A DNA stretch of 64,000 nt from Heterodontus francisci (GCF_036365525.1 NC_090376.1:38187075-38251074); one strand, 5' to 3'. Shown: positions 2,751-64,000, counted from the stretch's first letter. Notes: generated by a model from the letters alone, not told the origin. Translations and numbers: made by a program.

Positions 2751-3524
2751 AGCAACTGCATGTTTGACCATGCTGCTGAGGATTATGCTGGGATATGTAA
2801 ACTCATTCAACAGTTCAAAGCTTGAAACTGAGAGGCCAACACTGTTAAATTAGGAACTCAATTTATTGTCATTTTCCTTCTTTTCCAGACCCTTTCCTCA
2901 CTTAAATTGTGGACTCTCGGCAGCAAAAAATCTAATTGCTTTATATTAACAAATTTGTAATGTATCCCAACCTGCTGAAAGAACAATCAGTTGGGAATTG
3001 TGAAGAATGTAAGGTAGAGGGTGGAACTACTTCTTTACTTGTTATTCCATTTGTATTTAACTAAAGTCAACTAAAAGTGAAAAATGTTTAGGTCAAAGGT
3101 AAAGTGCTGGCTAAACTCCTTGAAAGCCCTGAGTTAATAGTAAAGCTAATTATGAAGTCATTGCTTTGTTGGTCCATCAAGTACAACAAAAGCAAGCTTG
3201 TTGGTCTGACCATCAAGTGTCAAGCTTTTAATCTGACAACTAACCGAGGCTACAAAAGGTTAATTCAGTCGAGAGAAGATTCAGATAATTATCTTGGACT
3301 CCACAGATGGAAACTCTAGTATTACATAAAACTTATGAAAGAAAACCAAAGCATGTGCGATGTACAAATTGGTCCTACATACCACAGCTGAAATTTACAA
3401 GGAACAGCCTAGATAATCTCATCAAAGTTTTTCATTATAACATTATTTAGGATGAATGAATTGTAGATGCACAGAAGCTGCATCTGTCAAAATCATAAGA
3501 AGGTATGTATGTACTTGATTATTC

Positions 3525-3685
3525 AGTTAGTAGATGAGCTATATATGCTGGACAGGTCCTAGATTCAGTCCCCAATCTGAGCTGAATTTGCTGATCCCAG
3601 ACAGGGCACAATAGAGGATGATATTGTTTTACCTTGTTGCCCAGTGTGATGGAGAGGAAAACCTGCCAGGGTCCCACTCCTAATT
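3525..3685 (+). mobile_element. Old SINE-like fragment; similar pieces at about 25110-25250 and 26720-26860
   Basis: Degenerate B-box-like segment followed by a shared 'gctga..t..gctgatc.cag..agggc' body seen in all three places. Confidence 0.4.
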
Positions 3686-4437
3686 TTTTTTATTAATTCC
3701 TGGGATGTGGGTGTCGCTGGCTAGGCCAATCCCTAATTGGCCTTGAGAAGATGGAGATGAGCTGCCTTCTTGAGCCACTGCAGTCCATGTAGGACACCCA
3801 CAGTGCTGTTAGGAAGGGAGTTCCAAGATTTTGACCCAGTGACAGTGAAGGAATGGCGATATAATTCCAAGTCAGTATGGTGTGTGGCTTGGAAGGGAAC
3901 TTGCAGGTGGTGGTGTTCCCAACCATTTGCTGCCCTTGTCCTTCTAGGTGGTAGAGGTTGCGGGTTTGGAAGGTGCTGTCTAAGGAGCCTTGATGCGTTG
4001 CTACAGTGCATCTTGTAGATGGTACACACTGCTGCCACTGTGCGTCGGTGGTGGAGGGAATGAATGTTTGTGGATGGGATGCCAATCAAGCGGGCTGCTT
4101 TGTCCTGGATGGTGTTGAGCTTCTTGAGTGTTGTTGGAGCTGCACCCATCCAGGCAAGTGGAGAGTATTCCATCACACTCCTGACTTATGACTTGTAGAT
4201 GGTGGACAGGATTTGGGGAGTCAGGAGGTGAGTTACTCACTGCAGGATTCCTAGCCTCTGACTTGCTCTTGTAACCACGGTATTTATATGGCTACTCCAG
4301 TTCACTTTCTGGTCAATGGTAACTCCCAGGATGTTGATAGTGGGGGAATTCTGGAATAGTCAAGGGGAGATGGTTAGATTCTCTCTTGTTGGAGATGGTC
4401 ATTGCCTGGCACTTGTGTGGCATGAATGTTACTTGCT
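3685..4437 (-). mobile_element. 5'-truncated copy of the single-ORF CR1/Zenon-like LINE family (RT C-terminus plus 3' tail)
   Basis: ORF 3733-4176 MEYSPLAWMGAAPTTLKKLNTIQDKAARLIG is nearly identical to the copies at 38316-38911 and 59050-64000. Confidence 0.9.
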
Positions 4438-7410: not shown

Positions 7411-8319
7411 TGTTTGATCTTCTTTCCTTTAACGTTCTTTGAAGTTTTTTTAGCAGTCAATCTTTGTAAGGTTTCAACTCCTACACAACATACAAGGTAG
7501 TTACGTAATATGTGGCCATATCAATCCTATGAAAACCCCACATCACAACATTCAAGATATTCCATGATATCAGTTCAAAAACAGCTGCTGGCCGCTGTTG
7601 CTAATTAAGTCCCAGTTCAAAGAAAACCTGTTGGCTCAGATGACAATTCAGGGCTTACTGTTAGGGGGTGAATTTTCTTGGGGCCTCTCCTGCTCAGTTG
7701 CCGAAATGTTGGTGGAATTTCGGCGGAAACCCCTTTACATGTTATCCTGAGGAAGCCCTAAGGAAATTTGCTCCCTCCATTTCAAATTAGAGCCAAATCC
7801 ATTTTTTTAATAATAAAAGCAAAGTACTGCAGATGCTGGAAATCTGAAATAAAAAAAAGAAATGCTGGAAATACTCAGCAGGTCTGGCAGTATCTGTGGA
7901 GAGAGAAGCAGAGATAACGTTTCAGTGACCCTTCATTAGAACTAGCAGATATTAGAAATGTAAAAGGCTTTCAGCAAGTAAAGCGGGGGATAACAAAGGA
8001 GAAGGTGTTGATAGGACAGGGTCACAGAGAATAACTGACCAGAAGGTCATGGAACAAAGGCAAACGGTATGTTAATGGTGTGCTGAAAGACAAAGCATTA
8101 GTACAGAGAGGGTGTGAATTGACTGTAAAGCACAAAGCACTCCAAGCACAAACATTTAAAAAAATTTTTTAAACCAAAACAGTGGATAGGCACAGTAGAA
8201 ACAAACTAAACAAACTAACAAACCTAAAATAAAATAACCAAATAAAAAAGGAAAAAGAAAAAAAGAAAAAATAACTAAACACAAAAAGGGGGGCCCGTCA
8301 TGCTCTGAAATTATTGAAC

Positions 8320-9358: not shown

Positions 9359-9624
9359 AGAGAAAAAGTGGGGGTGGGGGCCTGAGAAGGAGGGGGCTCC
9401 CATGTTCGTGCTTGGAGTGCTTTGTGCTTTACAGTCAATTCACACCCTCTCTGTACTAACGCTTTGTCTTTCAGCACACCGTTAACATACCGTTTGCCTT
9501 TGTTCCATGACCTTCTGGTCAGTTATTCTCTATAACCCTGTCCTATCAACACCTTCTCCTTTGTTATCTCTTGCCCCACCCCCGCTTTACTTGCTTTAAA
9601 CCTTTTACATTTCTAATATCTGCT

Positions 9625-9661
9625 AGTTCTGATGAAGGGTCACTGACCTGAAACGTTAACT
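9625..9661 (+). ncRNA. Minimal type I hammerhead ribozyme motif in the PLE terminal repeat
   Basis: AGTT-CTGATGA-A-GGGTC-ACT-GACCT-GAAA-CGTT-AACT: both conserved cores, stem I AGTT/AACT, stem II GGGTC/GACCT and palindromic AACGTT in place of stem III. Confidence 0.7.
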
Positions 9662-9921
9662 CTGCTTCTCTCTGCACAGATGCTGCCAGACCTGCTGACT
9701 ATTTCCAGCATTTCTTGTTTTTGTTCCCTTCCTTTTTTTCTTTGTTTGCCATATGTGGGTAATATTGGCAAGGTTGCATTTATTGTCCATTGCTAGTTGC
9801 CTTGAGAAGTGATTGTGGGCTGCCTTCTTAAATCATCGATTCCAAGTTCCACAAGCCATTATTTTCTGGTGTCACCCCACAACTTACCAATTATTGAATT
9901 CAATTTCACATCTTGACATAT

Positions 9922-31175: not shown

Positions 31176-32648
31176 GATAGTACAATGCTTATGTTACTAA
31201 ACTTGTAATCCGGAGGCCTGGACTAATGATCCAGAGACATGAGTTCAAACCCCACCAATGTAACAAAGTGAAAAATTGCCCAGATATGTACTATCTGCAA
31301 GAGGCAGGACAAATCTAATCCATCCAATTACCACCTCATCAGTCCAATCTCAATCATCAGCAAAGTGATGGAAGGTGTCATCAACAGTGCTGTGAAGCGA
31401 CACTTAGTCACCAATAACCTGCTCACCGATGCTCAGTTTGGATTCCGCAAGGACCACTCAGCTCCTGACCTCATTACAGCCATGGTGCAAACATGGATAA
31501 AGAAGCTGAAGTCCAGAGATGAGGTGAGAGTGCCTGCCCAAGCCATCAAGGTAGCATTTGACTGAGTGTGTAATCAAGGAGCCTCTGTGAAATTGAAGTC
31601 AGTGAAAATCAAGGGGAACATTCTCCATTGGCTGGAGTCATACCTAGCACAAAGGAAGATGGTTGCAGTTGTTGGAAGCCAATCATCTCAAACGTGGGAC
31701 ATTGCTGTTCCTCAGGGCAGTGTCCTAAGCCCAATCATCTTCATTAATGATCTTCCCTCCAGCATAAGGTCAAAAGTGGGGATGTTTGCTGATGATTGCA
31801 AGGTGTTTAATTCCATTCACAACTCCTCAGATAATGTAGCATGCAGCAAGACCTGGACAATATCCAGGCTTGGGCAGATAAGTGACATGCAACATTTGCG
31901 CCATATTAAGGCCAAGCAATGACAACTTCGAATGAGAGCGTCTAAGCACCTTTCCTTGACATTCATTGGCATTACCATTGCCAAATCCTCCACTATCAAT
32001 ATCCTGGAGCTCACCATTGACCAGAAACTTAACTGGGCCAGCCATATGAATACTGTGGCTACAAGAGCACATCAGAGGCTGGGAATTCAGCAATGAGCAA
32101 CTCACCTCCTGCCTCCACAAAGTCTGTCCTGCATCTATAAGGCTGAAGTCAGGAGCGTGGTGGAATACTCTGCAGTTGCATGGTTGAGTGCAGATCTAAC
32201 AACATTCATGCAACTCAGTAACATCCAGGCCAAAGCAGTCACTTGATTGGCATCCCATCCACCACATTAAACATTCATTCCCTCCATCACCGGTGCACCA
32301 TGTGTACCGTCTACACAATGCACTGCAGCAACACGCCAAGGCTTCTTTGACAGCACTTCCCAAAAACATGACCTCTACTGCCTAGGGCAGCAGGCATGTG
32401 ACAACGTCACCAACTGCAAGTTGCCCTCTAAATCACACACCATTCTGACTTGGAAATATATCGCTGTTCCTTGATCGTGGCTAGGTCAAAATCCTAGAAC
32501 TCCCTACGTAACAGCATTGTGGGAGTGCCTTCACCACACAGACTGCAGAGGTTCAAAAATAAGGCTCACTACCACCTTCTGTAGGACAATTAGGAATGAG
32601 CAATACATGCTTGCCAGTGACACCCACATCTGATTAACTAAAAAAAAT
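31176..32648 (+). mobile_element. Internally deleted CR1/Zenon-like LINE: tRNA-like head joined directly to the RT region and 3' tail
   Basis: Head 31176-31258 with B-box-like GAGTTCAAACC at 31241. Then KIAQICTICKRQDKSN, VMEGVINSAVKRHL, PQGSVLSP, MFADD and the family tail. Confidence 0.85.
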
Positions 32649-38068: not shown

Positions 38069-38315
38069 CTAAGTGCCTTCCCCCTTATTTTGAAAATGTG
38101 TCCCCTGGTTCTAGACTCCCCAACCCGGGGAAACATCTTAGCTGCATCGACCCTGTCTAACCCTTTAACTATTTTGTAGGTTTCAATGAGATCACCACTC
38201 ATTCTTCGAAACTCTGGAGAATACAGGCCCAGTTTCCCCAATCTCTCTTCATAGGACAGTCTCACCATCCCGGGAACAAGTCTGGTGAATCTTCTATGGC
38301 AATAATATCCTTCCT

Positions 38316-38911
38316 TTTTTTTATTCATTCATGGGATGTGGGCGTCGCTGGCTAGGCTTGCATTTATTGCCCATCCCTAATTGCCCTTTAGAAGGTGGTG
38401 GTGAGCTGCCTTTTTGAACTGCTGCAGCCCATGTGGGGTAGGTACACCCACAGTGCTTTTAGTAAGGGAGTTCCAGGATATCGACCCAGCGACAGTGAAG
38501 GAACGGCGATATAGTTCCAAGTCAGGATGGTGTGTGACTTAGAGGGAACTTGCAGGTGGTGGTGTTCCCATGCATTTGCTGCTCTTGTCCTTCTAGTTGG
38601 TAGAGGTCGCGGGTTTGGAAGGTGCTGTCGAAGGAGCCTTGGTGCATTGCTACAGTGCATCTTGTAGATGGTACACACTGCTGCCACTGTGCGTCGGTGG
38701 TGGAGGGAGTGAATGTTTGTGGATGGTGTGCCAATCAAGTGGGTTGCTTTGTCCTGGATGGTGTCGAGCTTCTTGAGTGTTGTTGGAGCTGCACCCATCC
38801 AGGCAAGTGGAGAGTATTCCATCACACTCCTGACTTGTGCCTTGTAGATGGAGGACAGGTTTTGGGGAGTCAGGAGGTGAGTTACTCGCCACGGGATTCC
38901 TAGCCTCTGAC
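38316..38911 (-). mobile_element. 5'-truncated CR1/Zenon-like LINE
   Basis: IYKAQVRSVMEYSPLAWMGAAPTTLKKLDTIQDK plus the family tail. The host CR1 rejoins as tatccttcct|aaggtaagggg. Confidence 0.9.
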
Positions 38912-39327
38912 CTAAGGTAAGGGGACCAAAACTGCACACAGTACTCCAAGTGCGGTCTAACCAAGGTTCTAGACAATCGAAGCGAGACTTCACTACTCCT
39001 GGAGTCAAATCCTCTTGCGATAAAGGCTAACATAATTGCTTGCTGCACCTGCATGTTAGCTTTCAGTGACTTATTGACAAGAACACCCAGCTCCCTTTGT
39101 ACATCTACACTTTCTAATCTCTTACCATTTAAGAAATACACTGCACATCTGTTCTTCCTACCAAAGTGGATAACCTCACATTTTTCCACATTCCATCAGC
39201 CATGTTCTTGCCCACTCACTAAGTCTGTCCAAATCCCCCTGAAGCCGCTTTGCATTTTCCTCACAACACACATTCCCACCTAGTTTTGTGTCATCTGCAA
39301 ACTTGGAAATACTACATTTGGTCACCA

Positions 39328-39465: not shown

Positions 39466-39821
39466 TTTATTTTTTATTTATTTAGAGATACAGCACTGAA
39501 ACAGGCCCTTCGGCCCACCGAGTCTGTGCCGACCATCAACCACCCATTTATACTAATCCTATACTAATTCCATATTCCTACCACATCCCCATCTGTCCCT
39601 ATATTTCCCTGCCATCTACCTATACTAGGGGCAATTTATAATGGCCAATTTACCTATCAACCTGCAAGTCTTTGGCATGTGGGAGGAAACCGGAGCACCC
39701 GGAGGAAACCCACGCAGACACAGGGAGAACTTGCAAACTTCACACAGGCAGTACCCAGAATTGAACCCGGGTCCCTGGAGCTGTGAGGCTGCGTTGCTAA
39801 CCACTGCGCCACTGTGCCGCC
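39466..39821 (-). mobile_element. HE1-type V-SINE, full length
   Basis: Reverse complement: GGCGGCACAGTGGCGCAGTGG (A box)...GGTTCAATTC (B box), V-domain TCTCCCTGTGTCTGCGTGGGTTTCCTCCGGGTGCTCCGGTTTCCTCCCACA and a CR1-like tail. Confidence 0.9.
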
Positions 39822-40143
39822 CTCCTATCCCATGTACTTTAATTTTACTAACCAGTTTCCTGTGGGGGACTTTATCAAAAGCCTTCTGAAAATCCAAGTA
39901 TACCAAGTCCACCAACTCCCCTTTATCAATTCTGTTAGTAACATCCTCAAAAAACTCCAACAGGTTCGTCAAACATGATTTCCCATTCATAAATCCACGT
40001 TGACTATGCCCAATCAGATCATTATCATCCAAGTGTCCATTTATCACATCCTTTGGAATAGATTCTAGCATTTTCCCAATGACTGATGTAAGGCTAACAG
40101 GTTTGTAATTCCCTGTTTTCTCTCTCACTCCCTTCTTAAATAG

Positions 40144-45090: not shown

Positions 45091-45383
45091 ATTAGCAGGA
45101 ACTGGAAGGGGAGAGGCACTCACCTTCAGGGCGAAATCTCAGCTGATACGGGCCACCTTTCCATCAAACACCACACAGCCCGAGTGTGTCACCTCTCAAA
45201 TTATCCTTCTCATGCAGATCAACCAGCTCGCCTACAACATTAGCATTGACTTATGACGTATGAAAATGCCAAGTGAAAAACTTAATAAATTTTAGTAGGT
45301 TTATACATCAAAGAAATATTTACAAATTGCACCAGTGACCCCGGAGAGCTGTTAATGTGATTTTTTGAAACGTTTGCGAGTGC

Positions 45384-47123
45384 TCACGTGTGTGGACGAT
45401 CAATCTCCGCCAGCCACAACAGAGGCAGGTGGCTGATCAGGCTGTCGCGTTGCTCTGGATGACTTTGCAGGCGCCTTCTGCATGCCTGAGGCCGTGTAGG
45501 CCGCGGCTTCTCAAGGTGACCCTGAGAACTCTCAGGAATACCCTCTGACACCTGGGGAGTATGAGTTTCTGAAGTAACTGGCAGAGGGGACAAGGAACTG
45601 CAGGATGCAGCAGGAGCGACCTGAGAGGAGCCCCCATATGAAATCTGATGCTGGCCCTGTGCCCTCTCGAGGCTCAATTGGTCCTCTCTGCTGACCTCAG
45701 AGGGATGAGCAGCTTTCAAATGTCACCTGAGCATCATAGACAGATCTCTAATGCTCTGGTCCGTGGAACTCACTCTCTCTGTGAGGTTATGCATGGCCTC
45801 CAGGATTGGGCCCTCCAGCGCAGCCACCAATCTGTCAGTGGAGGAAACCTGTTTGGCCGATGACAGGGACTGTGTGATACTCAAGGCCTGGATGGACATC
45901 TCAAAAGGCTGAGCCAGAGCATGCAATGTCTCTGGTAACTCCCCCAGATCTCCATGCACCGCATGCTGCACTTGCAGCATCTCCCACCGAATGGATGTCA
46001 GCAGAGGCTCGTCATGAGCATGTGGCTCAGCACTGGCCTGGCCTCCCACAGTCCTTTAATTGTCAGAGGCATCGGCCGGTACTGCCTCTAGCAACTGGTC
46101 TGGCACTTGTGTGGTGCTGGCACCAGGTTGTGACAAGCATGCCAACCAAGGTGACTGTCTCTGAGCTGGCACTTGGTGCAGGGCGAGGATGTGACGCTGC
46201 ACCCTCTGAGGTCCCTCCTCCTCCTCCTCAGAGGTGGATGGATGAGCCCCGGAGAAGCTTCCTGGCCGCTGCTGTGCTTCACCTGCAGGGAAAATCAGAA
46301 TGATCAGTTAAGATCAGCACTCCTGACTGGAGGACATGTTATAGACTGCATTGTGGGCCCATGTGTGTGAATTTAAGTTTGAGAGCATCCTTTAGTGCCT
46401 GAACCAATCGTCGCACCTGCCCCCTCCCCTCGACATTCTAGGGAACTCACCCTCTTGATCGGGTGCACCGGCCAAGCCATCAGCTACTGCGGATCCTCCA
46501 TCCTCTCCTGCTAGTGCCAATGCATCCTCCTCCAATCTGGTCAAAAAGGCAAGGTTGGCCACTCCGCCACTGGCCCGGGCCCTCTCACGGGCATTATGTG
46601 CCCTCTTCTCCTGTGAAGACACAAGGCAAATAGTTAAGACACATGACTTGAAAGTTCACCCACTTACCCCTTAGGCTGAATGCTGCATCTCAAACCAGTG
46701 CCAGTGACGTGCACGGATGGAACACATCTGGACCACTGTGCATCACAGATGTGCGCATTATACAGCCCAAGGCATGGCTGCAGCCAATCACTGAACATGG
46801 ATAGCTTCGACCTTGCAGCATCAGCACCCATTGACCCTCCCTTGTCAAATAAAACCTGCGGTGACTGCGGAATGCCCCTTACCCTGGCAGAGCACAGAAG
46901 GTCATTGACCCGCTTGCGGCACTGGAGTCGTGTCCTCCTCACTACTCCATGGCTGCTGACCTCCTTCACTACCTCCAGCCACACCTTCTTGCTGACCTGG
47001 GGAGGCCTCCTCCTTCTGTCTGATGGGAAGAGGACCTCCCGCCTTGCCTCAGCCGCCTAGAGGAGGACATGCAAGGAGTCCTCTGAGAAGTTTGGGGCCT
47101 TGCGGCTGCTTCTCCCTTCCATT
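45384..47123 (-). pseudogene. Harbinger Myb/SANT-like DNA-binding protein gene, spliced, disrupted
   Basis: Exon 1 KAPNFSEDSL...VLFPSDRRRRP...WLEVVKEVSS...QCRKRVNDLLCSAR then GTAAG (about 46882). Exon 2 EKRAHNARERARASGG...DQE then GTGAG (about 46450). Further exon(s) from about 46282. Confidence 0.82.
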
Positions 47124-47534
47124 GTCGTCAGCCAATTCTGGTGGGCTTCTGTTTCATTTACAGTTGTTGGATTGGTGGGCACTTTAAGTCCTCCTCCAGA
47201 CCTTTCACCCTCAGGCTGCAGTTTTTCCTTTGGTGATATGGAGTTGATCCTCCCATCGTCCTCCTTGCTGCAGGTAAGCCTCTCAGAGACACAGAGGTTG
47301 CTGAAAGCCCTTTTAAATGGCTTTCAGCAACCTCTTCTGGTTCTAGCCTCACCCCCGCTGATGCTCAGCTTCCCGTCCGCGCGCACCCTTTTCATTCAGA
47401 AATACACTGCGGAGCCGCTAATTGGCTGCTTCGCGCGCAATAGTGGCGGCACCTAAGCACGGAGCGGGAGTGAGTTCTGCACCCGCTTCCGCTTCCCTAA
47501 ACTCTGAGCCGCCGACAATGGCAAAATTCCGGCT

Positions 47535-57283: not shown

Positions 57284-57604
57284 AGACAGTGAAGGGGCAT
57301 TCTCATGTTTTTTCGCTAAGGAGGAATTTCATTCTTTATGTTTCTTGTCAGTATTTCAATGTAAGTGGATTCAGCGTTTGTGATTTATAACAAGTTGTAC
57401 AATGAACATTAATCTGTGTCCAGGTCTTGTTAAGACAGTATGAGTGATATTGCACAGAAGTAGGCCATTTGACCAATCAGTATTTATCAAATTCCCTTTC
57501 GCAAGTTATTATTGAATTTGCTCCCACTACCCTTTCAGGCAGCGCATTCTAGATCATGAAAACTGGCTGTCACCCTGGTTCTTTTGCCAATTACTTTAGC
57601 TAGG

Positions 57605-58214: not shown

Positions 58215-58607
58215 GCCAAGGCTTTGAAGAGGTTGTGGAGGAGATTTACTAGAATGATGCCAGGTATGCAAGACTTTTACGTGGAGATACTAGAGAAGCT
58301 GGGGCTGTTCTCCTTATAACAGAAAAGGTTAAGGGAAGATTTGATAGAGGTGTTCAGAATCATGAAGGGTTTGATAGAGTAAATAAGAAAAACTGTTTCC
58401 AGTGGCAGGAGGTTCAGTAAGCAGAAATTACAGATTCAAAGTAATTGGCAAAAGAACCAGGGTGACAGCCAGTTTTCATGATCTAGAATGCGCTGCCTGA
58501 AAGGGTAGTGGGAGCAAATTCAATAATAACTTGCGAAAGGGAATTTGATAAATACTGATTGGTCAAATGGCCTACTTCTGTGCAATATCACTTTATGATT
58601 CTATGAT
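58215..58607 (+). mobile_element. CR1 3' end
   Basis: RRFTRMMPG...LEKLGLFSL...DLIEVFRIMKG. Confidence 0.85.
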
Positions 58608-59047: not shown

Positions 59048-59828
59048 TTTTTAAAAATTGATTCATGGGATGTGGGCGTCACTGGCCAGGCCAGCATTTA
59101 TTGCCCATCCCTAATTGCCCTTGAGAAGGTGGTGGTGAACTGCCTTCTTGAACCGCTGCAGTCCATGTGGGGTAGGTACACCCACAGTGCTGTTAGGAAG
59201 GGAGTTCCAGGATTTTGACCCAGCGACAGTGAAGGAACGGCGATATAGTTCCAAGTCAGGATGGTGTGTGACTTGGAGGGGAACTTGCAGGTGGTGGTGT
59301 TCCCTTGTATTTGCTGCCCTTGTCCTTCTAGTTGGTAGAGGTCATGGGTTTGGAAGGTGCTGTCTAAGAAGCCTTGGTGCATTGCTGCAGTGCATCTTGT
59401 AGATGGTACACACTGCTGCCACTGTGCGTCGGTGGTGGTGGGAGTGAATGTTTGTAGATGGGGTGCCAATCAAGCGGGCTGCTTTGTCCTGGATGGTGTC
59501 AAGCTTCTTGAGTGTTGTTGGAGCTGCACCCATCCAGGCAAGTGGAGAGTATTCCATCACACTCCTGACTTGTGCCTTGTAGATGGTGGACAGGCTTTGG
59601 GGAGTCAGGAGGTGAGTTACTCGCCGCAAGATTCTTAGCCTCTGACCTGCTCTTGTATGGCTACTCCAGTTCAGTTTCTGGTCAGTGGTAGCCTCTAGGA
59701 TGTGGATAGTGGGGGATTCAGCAATGGTAATGCCATTGAATGTCAAGGGGAGATGGTTAGATTCTCTCTTGTTGGAGATGGTCATTGCCTGGCACTTGTG
59801 GTGCACAAATGTTACTTGCCACTTATCA

Positions 59829-61583
59829 AAGAACAAAGAACAGTACAGCACAGGAACAGGCCATTCGGCCCTCCAAGCCTGCGCCGATCTTGATGCCTGC
59901 CTAAACTAACACCTTCTGCACTTCCGGGGCCCATATCCCTCTATTCCCTTCCTATTCATGTATTTGTCAAGATGTCTCTTAAACGTCGCTATCGTACCTG
60001 CTTCCACCACCTTCCCTGGCAGCAAGTTCCAGGCACTCACCACCCTCTGTGTAAAAAACTTGCCTCGCACATCCCCTCTAAACTTTGCCCCTCACACCTT
60101 AAACCTATGTCCCCTAGTAACTGACTCTTCCACCCTGGGAAAAAGCTTCTGACTATCCACTCTGTCCATGCCGCCCATAACTTTGTAAACCTCTATCATG
60201 TCGCCCCTCCACCTCCGTCGTTCCAGTGAAAACAATCCGAGTTTTTCCAACCTCTCCTCATAGCTAATGCCCTCCAGACCAGGCAACATCCTGGTAAACC
60301 TCCTCTGTACCCTCTCCAAAGCCTCCATGTCCTTCTGGTAGTGTGGCGACCAGAATTGCCGCAATATTCTAAATGTGGCCTAATTAAGATTCTGTACAGC
60401 TGCAATATGACTTGCCAATTTTTATACTCTATGCCCCGACCGATGAAGGCAAGCATGTCGTATGCCTTCTTGACTACCTTATCCACCTGCATTGCCACTT
60501 TCAGTGACCTGTGGACCTGTACGCCCAGATCTCTCTTCCTGTCAATACTCGTAAGGGTTCTGCCATTTACTGTATACCTCCCACCTACATTAGACCCTCC
60601 AAAATGCATTACCTCACATTTGTCCGGATTAAACTCCATCTGCCATTTCTCCGCCCAAGTCTCGAACCGATCTATATCCTGCTGTATCCTCTGACAATCC
60701 TCATCATTATCTGCAACTCCACCAACCTTTGTATCGTCCGCAAACTTACTAATCAGACCAGCTACATTTTCCTCCAAATCATTTATATTTATATAAACAG
60801 CAAAGGTCCCAGCACTGATCCCTGCGGAACACCACTAGTCACCTCCCTCCATTTAGAAAAACACCCATCCACTGATACCCTCTGTCTTCTATGACCGAGC
60901 CAGTTCTGTATCCATCTTGCCAGCTCACCTCTGATCCCGTGCGACTTCACCTTTTGTACCAGTCTGCCATGAGGTACCTTGTCAAAGGCTTTACTAAAGT
61001 CCATATAGATAACATCCACTGCCCTTCCTTCATCAATCATCTTCGTCACTTCCTCAAAAACCTCAATCAAATTAGTAAGACACGACCTCCCCTTCACAAA
61101 ACCATGCTGTCTCTCGCTAATAAGTTCGTTTGTTTCCAAATGGGAGTAAATCCTGTCCCGAATAATCCTCTCTAATAATTTCCCTACCACTGACGTAAGG
61201 CTCACCGGCCTAAAATTTCCTGGATTATCCTTGCCACCCTTCTTAAACAAAGGAACAACATTGGCTATTCTCCAGTCCTCTGGGACCTCACCTGCAGCCA
61301 ATGAGGATGCAAAGATTTCTGTCAAGGCCCCAGCAATTTCCTCCCTTGCCTCCCTCAGTATTCTAGGGTAGATCCCATCAGGCCCTGGGGACTTATCTAC
61401 CTTAATGCTTTGCAAGACACCCAACACCTCCTCCTTTTTGATAATGAGATGACTGAGACTATCTGCACTCCCTTCCCTGGGCTCATCATCCACCAAGTCC
61501 TTCTCTTTGATGAATACTGATGCAAAGTACTCATTTAGCACCTCGCCCATTTCCTCTGGCTCCACACATAGATTCCCTGGGGA
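59829..61583 (-). mobile_element. Young 5'-truncated CR1 inserted into the Zenon-like LINE
   Basis: TSD TATCA at 59824-59828 and 61584-61588; ORFs 60789-61565, 60196-60777 and 60092-60364. Confidence 0.95.
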
Positions 61584-63665
61584 TATCAGCCCAAGCCTGG
61601 ATATTGTCCAGGTCTTGCTGCATTTCTACACAGACTGCTTCAGTATCTGTGGAGTCACGAATGGTGCTGAACATTGTGCAATCATCAGCGAACATCCCCA
61701 CTTCTGACCTTATGATTGAAGGAAGGTCATTGATGAAGCAGCTGAAGGTGGTTGGGCCGAGGACACTACCCTGAGGAACTCCTGCAGTGATGTCCTGGAG
61801 CTCAGATGATTGACCTCCAACAACCACAACCATCTTCCTTTGTGCTAGGTATGACTCCAGCCAGCGGAGGGTTTTCCCCCTGATTCCCATTGACCTCAGT
61901 TTTGCTAGGGCTCCTTGATGCCATACTCGGTCAAATGCTGTCTTGATGTCAAGGGCAGTCACTCTCACCTCATCTCTTGAGTTCAGCTCTTTTGTCCATA
62001 TTTGAACCAAGGCTGTAATGAGGTCAAGAGCTGAGTGGCCCTGGCAGAACCCAAACTGAGCGTCACTGAGCAGGTTATTGCTAAGCAAGTGCCGCTTGAT
62101 GGCACTATTGATGACACCTTCCATCACTTTACTGATGATTGAGAGTAGGCTGATGGGGCGGTAGTTGGCCGGGTTGGACTTGTCCTGCTTTTTGTGTACA
62201 GGACATACCTGGGCAATTTTCCACATTGCAGGGTAGATACCAGTGTTGTAGCTGTACTGGAACAGCTTGGCTAGGGGCGCGGCAAGTTCTGGAGCACACG
62301 TCTTAAGTACTATTGCCGGAATATTGTCAGGGCCCATAGCTTTTGCAGTATCCAGTGCCTTCAGTCATTTCTTGATATCACGCGGAGTGAATCGAATTGG
62401 CTGAAGTCTGGCATCTGTGATGCTGGGGACTTCAGGAGGAGGCCGAGATGGATCATCAACTCGGCACTTCTCGCTGAAGATTGTTGCAAATGCTTCAGCC
62501 TTATCTTTCTCACTGATGTGCTGGGCTCCCCCTTCATTGAGGATGGGGATATTTGTGGAGCCACCTCCTCCAGTTAGTTGTTTAATTGTCCACCACCATT
62601 CACGGCTGGATGTGGCAGGACTGCAGAGCTTAGATCTGATCCATTGGCTATGGGATCGCTTAGCTCTGTCTATCGCATGCTGCTTACGCAGTTTGGCATG
62701 CAAGTAGTCCTGTGTTGTAGCTTCACCAGGTTGACACCTCATTTTGAGGTATGCCTGGTGCTGCTCCTGGCATGCCCTCCTGCACTCTTCATTGAACCAA
62801 GGTTGGTCTCCTGGCTTGATGGTAATGGTAGAGTGGGGGATATGCCCAGCCATGAGGTTACAGATTGTGGTTGAGTACAATTCTGCTGCTGCTGATGGCC
62901 CACAGCGCCTCATGGATGCCCAGTTTTGCATTGCTAGATCTGTTCGAAATCTATCCCATTTAGCACGGTGATAGTGCCACACCACACGATGGACGGTATC
63001 CTCAATGTGAAGGCGGGACTTCGTCTCCACAAGGACTGTGTGGTGGTCACTCCTACCAATACTGTCATGGACAGAAGCATCTGCGGCAGGCAGATTGGTG
63101 AGGACGAGGTCAAGTACGTTCTTCCCTCTTGTTGGTTCCCCCATCACCTGCCGCAGACCCAGTCTAGCAGCTATGGCCTTTAGGACTCGGCCAGCTCGGT
63201 CAGTAGTTGTGCTACCGAGCCACTTTTGGTGATGGACATCGAGGTCCCCCACCCAGAGTACATTTTGTGCCCTTGCCACCCTCAGTGCTTCCTCCAAGTG
63301 GTGTTCAACATGGGGGAGTACTGAGTCATCACTGAGGGAGGGCGGTAGGTGGTAATCAGTAGGCGGTTATCTTGCCCATGTTTGACCTGATGCCATGAGA
63401 CTTCATGGGGTCAGGAATCGATGTTGAGGACTCCCAGGGCAACTCCCTCCCTACTGTCTACCACTGTGCCACCACCTCTGGTGGGTCTGTCCTGCCGCTG
63501 GGGCAGGACATACCCAGGGATGGTGATGGCAGTGTCAGGGACATTGTCTGTAAGGTATGATTCCGTGAGTATGACTATGTCAGGCTGTTGCTTGACTAGT
63601 CTGTGGGACAGCTCTCCCAACTTTGGCACAAGCCCCCAGATGTTAGTAAGGATGACTTTGCAGGG
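61584..63665 (-). pseudogene. APE endonuclease-reverse transcriptase ORF of the Zenon-like LINE (few lesions)
   Basis: One in-frame stop at 62365-62367 separates two same-frame ORFs; a frameshift lies between 63297 and 63411. Confidence 0.88.
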
Positions 63666-64000
63666 TCGACAGGGCTGGGTTTGCCGTTGTCGTTACCGGT
63701 GCCTAGGTCGATGCCGGGTGGTCCGTCCAGTTTCATTCCTTTTTATTGACTTTGTAGCGGTTCGGTACAACTGAGTGGCTTGCTAGGCCATTTCAGAGGG
63801 CATGTAAGAGTTAACCACATTGCCGTGGGTCTGGAGTCACATGTAGGCCAGACCAGGTAAGGACAGCAGATTTCCTTCCCTGAAGGACATTAGTGAACCA
63901 GATGGGTTTTTACAACAATCGACAATGGTTTCATAGCCATCATTAGACTAGCTTTTAATTCCAGATTTATTAACTAATTTATTATTAATTAATTTATTAA

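Follow-up and report, generated by a model that had tools for sequence, protein, structure and literature searches.

Zenon LINEs and Their Closest Described Relatives

Stuart et al. (2026, PMC13343379) catalogued Zenon elements, which are long interspersed nuclear elements (LINEs) of the CR1 group, from five elasmobranchs as well as from hagfish and coelacanth. In the parts of that work considered here, every Zenon element is described as lacking ORF1 and as ending in poly(A); the absence of ORF1 is, thus, not new. The seven elasmobranch consensi, from five species (CarCar, RhiTyp, ScyCan, and HypSab Zenon-1, and SquAca Zenon-1 to -3), measure 2,886–3,314 nt, with the five longest at 3,244–3,314 nt. 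They have the same 5′ block, linker, and endonuclease start as the shark element described below, along with a length of about 3.3 kb, no ORF1, and an A-rich tail. Its tRNA-like head, short derivative, T-run loss, and missing AUG go unremarked in those same parts: the main text is without the terms tRNA, promoter, Pol III, and non-autonomous, and SINE occurs only in the title of a reference.

Several described systems combine some of the same parts. The lepidopteran Zenon likewise yields a short deletion derivative that joins 5′ and 3′ sequences, the SIDE Persaeus (PMC6740152). Persaeus is presented there without tRNA, 5S, or 7SL homology and without a Pol III promoter, whereas the head of the shark Zenon is tRNA-like. 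ZenoSINE has only the Zenon tail in common, and the origin of its head is given as unknown in the available part of PMC6685494. In contrast with both, it is the coding element itself that bears a tRNA-like head in the shark Zenon. For Bov-tA, Mar-1, and WALLSI2 (Kojima 2018, PMC5786205), the SINE body likewise corresponds to a LINE 5′ UTR followed by the LINE tail, but the tRNA head is reported on the short element only, while the long shark element is headed too. Body donors were found solely among RTE and Vingi LINEs in that survey, as far as its text was covered. The same paper mentions RTE-1_DAn and relatives as LINEs with tRNA-like sequence, a possible precedent for which the portion covered gives neither position nor role.

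MetaSINEs and DeuSINEs (PMC4824008, PMC5499810, PMC7245038) are also built from a tRNA head, a conserved body, and a LINE tail, although their core domains differ from the shark block. SacSINE1, as described, is 463 bp long with an L2-type tail. The Helenus, Ajax, and Cassandra TRIMs (PMC10886601) are non-SINE retroelements that likewise carry Pol III promoters derived from small RNAs, but they are described as non-coding LTR elements, whereas Zenon encodes an endonuclease and a reverse transcriptase (RT). The working rule in PMC10886601, in the part considered, is that LINEs are transcribed by Pol II and SINEs by Pol III. Neither a Pol III-transcribed or tRNA-headed autonomous LINE nor this shark SINE was met in the literature searched, outside of which lie most subscription papers and Repbase Reports, and five sequence words of the window had no match in the main texts of that literature.

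Identity and Extent of the Zenon Copy

The window is the whole stretch of 64,000 nucleotides of Heterodontus francisci DNA that was analyzed. Its host element, interrupted by a nested CR1, is, as judged from its sequence, a dead copy of an elasmobranch Zenon LINE (CR1 group). It has a single ORF with AP endonuclease and RT domains and no ORF1, and A-rich ends are found in the host and in four other copies. A block 15-mer, a 12-mer across the block's 3′ edge, and the length agree with the published elasmobranch consensi; the two word matches and the shared order of block, linker, and endonuclease therefore place the element in the Zenon family. Without the nested CR1, 3,193 nt of the host are visible, which, with the inferred head, agrees with the consensi of about 3.3 kb. 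Coordinates are collected in Table 1.

Table 1. Features of the Zenon locus and related copies, in window coordinates.
Feature	Position	Strand	Remarks
Host Zenon LINE	59048..64000	-	Dead copy; 5′ end severed by the window edge
5′ non-coding region, visible part	63770..64000	-	Common to the short derivative
Block (body conserved in the Zenon 5′ region)	63774..63913	-	Neither Meta-domain nor Deu/Nin core
5′ breakpoint of the short form	63769..63776	-	Contigs jump to the tail at 59121-59125
Endonuclease frame upstream of the catalytic domain	63660..63785	-	After a conserved TAG; no in-frame AUG
AP-endonuclease domain of the single ORF	63034..63659	-	Stop 63413-63411 and frameshift near 63331
Reverse transcriptase domain	61584..62364	-	Pfam RVT_1 at about 62190-61591, E 2e-31
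Nested 5′-truncated CR1 LINE	59828..61583	-	Younger than the host; in-genome control
C-terminal part of the host ORF	59111..59827	-	Internal stop 59344-59342; final stop 59113-59111
3′ tail	59048..59123	-	Last codons, stop, short stem-loop, AATAAA, A-rich end
5′-truncated Zenon copy	31264..32640	+	75-78% alike; uninterrupted at the host's CR1 position; no T4 run
5′-truncated Zenon copy	3684..4436	-	86% alike; no T4 run
5′-truncated Zenon copy	38315..38913	-	94% alike; no T4 run

An earlier reading of the locus, made from sequence only, had described an autonomous LINE with a SINE-type 5′ end and no ORF1. The block that it quoted lies where it was said to, and the K of KVILTNIWGLVPKLGEL is encoded at 63659, 115 nt downstream, which leaves no room for an ORF1 between them. 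The 3′ tail that it quoted was also located, at 59123-59048. The span given for the element, 61584-64000, covers its 5′ part only, as the host continues past the nested CR1 to about 59048. Downstream of the block, the endonuclease is recognized by Pfam as Exo_endo_phos_2 (E 4e-9), and the host RT is 39% identical to that of the nested CR1. The inactivating lesions of the ORF are stops at 63695, 63413, 62367, and 59344, and the frameshift near 63331. A homologue search with the middle piece of the ORF returned only three shark host-gene models containing Zenon fragments, and an alignment search of viral contigs with the host RT found no relative.

Identity of the 5′ Block

The block had been assigned to the Meta-domain of MetaSINEs. 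This assignment did not hold: the supplement of PMC7245038 prints a UCON3 domain, a Deu/Nin core, and a Meta consensus, the last of which is by eye unlike the block, and the 12-nt Meta core motif has no match in 63700-64000, even with three mismatches. The 66-bp Meta-domain that directly follows the tRNA head in MetaSINEs is, accordingly, not what is found here, and the UCON3 domain is likewise unlike the block by eye. The Deu body of SacSINE1 was considered as another candidate and dropped, as the printed Deu/Nin core of about 130 nt does not resemble the block by eye; a Deu core 12-mer had no match in 63700-64000 with up to three mismatches. These Deu comparisons cover the core of about 130 nt and leave out the other 200 nt or so of the vertebrate Deu-domain. 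The block also has no blastn match elsewhere in the window, including the element near 39500-39822, which we take to be V-SINE-like, so that no kinship to V-SINEs (HE1), which have a V-domain and a tail of CR1 type, was seen. It may match some named repeat in Repbase or Dfam.

No Rfam family reached its gathering threshold in the window, and a ribozyme was rejected as a candidate, a single chance Rfam match (E 0.07) being all that was obtained in 63600-64000. The block and tail fold no better than their shuffles (z of 0.52, -1.26, -0.52, -0.76, and 0.75, with -1.26 for the block), and an IRES-like structure is, therefore, without support. Contigs from viruses, metagenomes, and prokaryote genomes contained no exact match to patterns of the block.

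[quoted passage not shown]

Supplementary Table 2 of PMC13343379, stated to hold 1,003 CR1-group consensi, was compared over the first 400 nt of each. The block 15-mer occurs in six of the seven elasmobranch Zenon rows, and only shark or ray Zenon rows matched; the 12-mer across the 3′ edge of the block is likewise in six of the seven and in no other row. Read by eye within these 400 nt, all seven consensi have block, linker, and, where visible, endonuclease start in the order of the host. The junction is, thus, family-wide and not peculiar to this locus, as the sequence-only reading required. An A-box-like motif, e.g., TGGCGTAGTGG, lies within the first 20 nt or so of all seven (by eye), and a canonical B box, GGTTCGAATCC or AGTTCAAATCC, in six; that of the ray consensus is defective, with one base missing. 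In a text search with five B-box 11-mers, two matched, exclusively in those six rows of the table. Most rows also have, between the boxes, an anticodon-like and a long variable-arm-like hairpin, as seen by eye rather than computed. By eye, over these 400 nt, neither the two hagfish rows nor the coelacanth row has a head of this kind, and all three contain T4 runs there.

Internal A and B boxes, as in type 2 Pol III promoters, are, thus, present in the family consensi. For the host copy, their place is outside the window: its head would lie roughly 100–120 nt past 64000. In one sequencing run (X1), the loose ends of 121 contigs at 63973 run into the post-B-box sequence of the consensi, and 63972-64000 is an AT-rich, copy-specific stretch with near-zero contig coverage. 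ARAGORN found no tRNA in the 64-kb window. A pattern combining A and B boxes had no match on either strand of the 632,955 nt that make up 159 related LINE loci, nor did the block and tail have a real blastn match there; these negatives are weak, since many of the 159 loci stop short of the 5′ end of the element.

Contigs offer a further view of the junction. Two of those listed (among 32 pieces listed) bridge it with at least 31 letters on each side, with 24 and 10 letters differing, and between 122 and at least 128 contigs per DNA run span the main variant places at 63759-63765, on its LINE side. The depth of the linker is near that of the inner endonuclease bins in three runs (X1, X5, and X15) and 2.5–5 times lower in a fourth (X8); some full-length copies may, therefore, have other 5′ ends.

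Depletion of T Runs

In vertebrates, Pol III is terminated by a run of at least four T in the non-template strand, and a LINE made by this polymerase is, therefore, expected to be without T4 runs. The sense strand of the host contains no T4-or-longer run in 3,156 nt, where 4.4 are expected from base shuffles (P 0.008), as is proper to the non-template strand of a type 2 Pol III unit. Runs of T3 or longer number 5, versus 21.8 expected by base shuffle and 11.7 by dinucleotide shuffle (P 0.006); within the ORF, synonymous-codon shuffling gives an expectation of 12.6 (P 0.0005). Interrupted tracts (4 T in 5 nt) number 3, versus 9.8 and 7.4 expected (P 0.002 and 0.022). Three other Zenon copies have no T4 in 2,698 nt (4.7 expected, P 0.01), the four copies not being independent, because they are kin and overlap in their 3′ part. 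Four CR1 copies in the same window, used as a control, have 25 T4 in 5,529 nt, with no depletion. Across both strands of the 64-kb window, no stretch without T4 is longer than 61216-64000 on the minus strand.

An outside control was drawn from the same 159 CR1-group loci, which come from metagenomes and prokaryote assemblies (in the latter, probably as host contamination); 110 with a frame of at least 1,500 nt were used, and 49 without a qualifying N-free frame were dropped. None of the 110 frames is T4-free (minimum 1, median 6.7 per kb), and the observed/expected ratio for T3 is 0.30 in the host versus a control minimum of 0.55 and median of 1.07. The RTs of these controls are 31–48% identical, and the loci are mostly T-richer and in many cases from few hosts; in the one whose T content is matched (L088, 20% T), no more than a single T4 occurs over 2,859 nt. 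Phenylalanine, the codons of which begin with TT, makes up 1.8% of the host protein versus a control median of 4.8%. Compared region by region, as low a share occurs in 1 of 12, 2 of 45, 22 of 147, and 2 of 73 proteins in the alignments.

Stricter nulls temper this picture. The absence of T4 taken alone loses significance, with P 0.17 under dinucleotide and 0.05 under synonymous shuffling, and the signal, therefore, rests on the depletion of T3 and TT. A and G runs are not depleted after synonymous shuffling. C-runs are low too, with 45 C3 in the host versus 54.7 (dinucleotide, P 0.012) and 31 versus 46.3 in the other three Zenon copies (0 of 2,000 shuffles as low), so that run avoidance is not wholly T-specific. 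The first sense-strand run of at least four T in the host is a T5 at 59057, inside the A-tail. It was rejected as a terminator, being found in two of the five copies with an A-rich end read, and no conserved terminator follows the tail among the Zenon copies whose ends were read in the window.

Start of the Reading Frame

The TAG ahead of the endonuclease frame is found in six of the seven consensi (by eye). Beyond it, an Arg/Lys-rich stretch, resembling the N-termini of some relatives, is encoded upstream of the endonuclease. The stop at 63695-63693 belongs to this copy alone, as about 99% of the contig depth reads another letter at 63695. In the endonuclease frame, the first 93 codons include no Met; the earliest in-frame one is at 63144, close to where the endonuclease ends. 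Out of frame, an AUG at 63736 starts a stretch of 46 codons, and a frameshift route is, therefore, possible. The top ORF2 lengths published (up to 747 aa, versus 940 codons in the host) might have spoken for the missing AUG, but they were dropped as support, the getORF mode being unstated.

The Short Internally Deleted Form

Contigs from seven sequencing runs of five organisms were used; in total, 20 runs from 11 studies contain 62800-64000 wholly or partly. Joints were detected at a likeness of 88, with a shorter side of 23–38 letters, and the best 15 were retained (over 15,000 others were weaker). Nine of these best 15 connect 63769-63776 with 59121-59125, each in four of four runs and in 4–47 contigs, and the block-to-tail joints are the best supported in every one of the four DNA runs. 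Many loose ends start at 63764-63769, and, in a finer comparison, those at 63767-63769 read as the 3′ tail in four of four runs. The short form is, on this sequence evidence, the front end of the element joined to its tail, about 2.9 kb of coding sequence having been lost in between. The tail is the LINE's own end, because it holds the last codons and stop of the ORF, and it is common to the short form and to the 5′-truncated Zenon copies. Like a tRNA-derived SINE, the short form is non-coding and has a LINE-derived 3′ tail. It would retain the tRNA head, which is read on the long consensi only.

Contigs cover the block about 2 to 6 times as deeply as the endonuclease peak, a crude sign that the short form outnumbers the long one. 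A run guessed to be RNA (X15) contains both forms, and says nothing on transcription. The autonomous-type LINE with a SINE-type 5′ end and the short elements resembling internal deletions, both put forward by the sequence-only reading, have, thus, stood up, while the Meta-domain and SlmI identities have not. As for origin, either a SINE front end was captured by the LINE or the short form was deleted from the LINE, and either may hold.

Proposed Mechanism and Alternatives

The architecture is real and unusual within a catalogued family, and the putative Pol III mechanism is well motivated. We judge it somewhat probable that full-length Zenon RNA is made by RNA polymerase III and translated cap-independently from a non-AUG start. 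The A and B boxes of the head, if active as their motifs in the consensi suggest, would recruit TFIIIC and Pol III. With no T4 terminator in its path, the polymerase would read through the entire 3.3 kb and would halt in the flanking DNA beyond the A-tail, in the manner of Alu. Translation of this uncapped RNA would begin at a non-AUG codon within or close to the A-rich linker, perhaps with the assistance of the conserved block. This is the weakest step, a 3.3-kb uncapped mRNA being an unusual translation substrate. The endonuclease-RT would then bind the 3′ tail and insert the element by target-primed reverse transcription, which is established for CR1-group LINEs. The short form, with the promoter side (presumably including the head) and the tail but without the ORF, would be moved in trans. 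The fuller proposal is tentative, and we hold it with slightly more doubt than belief: the shark Zenon would be autonomous and Pol III-transcribed, with a SINE promoter, a 3.3-kb uncapped mRNA purged of T runs in its codons and amino acids, and a non-AUG start; a single element would then exist in a long form, the LINE, and a short one, the SINE, with the LINE leader as the SINE body.

An ordinary Zenon LINE transcribed by Pol II, in which the head is a relic of SINE capture or a Pol II promoter or insulator, and in which T runs were lost through composition or the avoidance of U-rich processing signals, is an unlikely reading that carries appreciable weight. The relevant parts of PMC10886601 and PMC5786205 assign the transcription of LINEs to Pol II and that of SINEs to Pol III, butterfly Zenon and Persaeus are reported to have spread without a tRNA head (PMC6740152), the tail has an AATAAA, and both the weakness of the T4 signal under stricter nulls and the somewhat low C-runs agree with it. 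It sits less well with the retention of the A and B boxes in sharks and, partly, in a ray, and with T3 runs and interrupted T tracts that are still depleted after synonymous shuffling when A and G runs are not. None of the 110 related frames reaches the low level of the host, and a capped mRNA normally uses an AUG, of which there is none in frame. A split route, rather improbable in our view, would make Pol III RNA only the template for insertion and have the protein made from capped Pol II transcripts with Zenon copies in them, either read-through or spliced host RNAs. It would explain the boxes and the T-run loss without cap-independent translation. Long copies number hundreds to thousands in elasmobranch genomes, according to Table S3 of PMC13343379, 39% of whale shark Zenon-like sequence is intronic, and Zenon pieces are annotated within predicted shark host proteins. 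Yet pure supply in trans, at odds with the cis-preference general among LINEs, relaxes selection on the ORF of each master copy, and near-identical families persist in five species; the missing in-frame AUG is also left unexplained, unless splicing provides one.

It is very improbable that the fusion is not a unit at all, i.e., that a SINE lies beside, or was repeatedly template-switched onto, 5′-truncated LINEs, or that a LINE inserts site-specifically into a SINE. Such readings would suit the greater abundance of the short form, with its excess of block depth, and the many loose ends at 63764-63769, but they have to contend with a single fixed junction in all seven consensi of five species and with a host length that, with the head, agrees with the 3.3-kb consensi. 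Moreover, the tail, with the end of the ORF, terminates every truncated copy in the window, and is, thus, the LINE's end and not a target. That the block is a Meta-domain and that MetaSINEs such as SlmI descend from this Zenon LINE is barely credible. CR1-Zenon LINEs are indeed reported as tail partners of bivalve Meta SINEs (PMC11481361, in the part available), but the block is unlike the Meta consensus, and SlmI is described as a salmonid tRNA-Leu SINE with RSg-1 as its partner LINE (PMC3747384, likewise in part). The earlier classing of SlmI as a MetaSINE also falls, as SlmI is absent from the 15 MetaSINEs named in the available text of PMC4824008, none of which is from sharks.

Were Pol III transcription of Zenon to prove true, a natural 940-codon gene would be read by Pol III and translated uncapped, and an abundant vertebrate element would break the working rule of LINEs for Pol II and SINEs for Pol III. 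The origin of conserved SINE bodies would gain a living example as well, in which a coding LINE from neither the RTE nor the Vingi clade supplies its leader as the body. If Pol II is the polymerase instead, the gain is a modest one of annotation, namely an unremarked tRNA head and short derivative in a catalogued family.

Nested CR1 and Other Copies in the Window

A blastn search within the 64-kb window found three longer 5′-truncated Zenon copies and two tail fragments, all without the block. The nested CR1 is flanked by a 4-bp GATA target-site duplication, and the host resumes at 59827. Four of the best 15 joints of contigs against the whole element (over 15,000 being weaker) skip the nested CR1.

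Additional Features of the Window

The SINE with a tRNA head sits inserted among CR1 copies and resembles the shark V-SINE HE1. The second-longest stretch free of T4 runs (four or more T in a row) has a G+C content of 0.51-0.55 and contains no frame of at least 150 aa. Of the two inverted repeats, the identical pair may have arisen by recent inversion, may belong to a small element with inverted repeats, or may be an artefact of assembly, and the more diverged pair possibly constitutes the termini of a non-autonomous DNA transposon.

Features of the window and related LINE frames with few T4 runs
Feature	Position	Strand	Description
SINE	window ~39500-39822	-	tRNA head, clean A and B box motifs, CR1-type tail
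T4-free stretch	window 45361-47221	+	1,861 nt, second-longest in window
Inverted duplicate	window 57443-57597 and 58438-58592		arms 155 nt, 100% identical, spacing ~840 nt
Inverted repeat	window 7848-8155 and 9402-9725		arms ~320 nt, 90% alike
Related LINE frame	L150 2949-4982		one T4 run only vs 9.8 expected
Related LINE frame	L088 34-2892		one T4 run only vs 3.8 expected

Related Sequences Elsewhere

The Pol III A/B-box pattern had no match near the two control LINE frames listed, the L088 contig stopping short of the LINE 5' end. Pieces of the Zenon ORF (70-75 residues) are found inside three predicted shark host proteins, of storkhead-box, zinc finger, and sushi-domain types (P0001-P0003); these may be gene-model artefacts or cases of exonisation. 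Contigs from numerous prokaryote genome assemblies, particularly symbiont MAGs, also carry animal-type CR1-group LINEs (L081-L159), which probably reflect host contamination.
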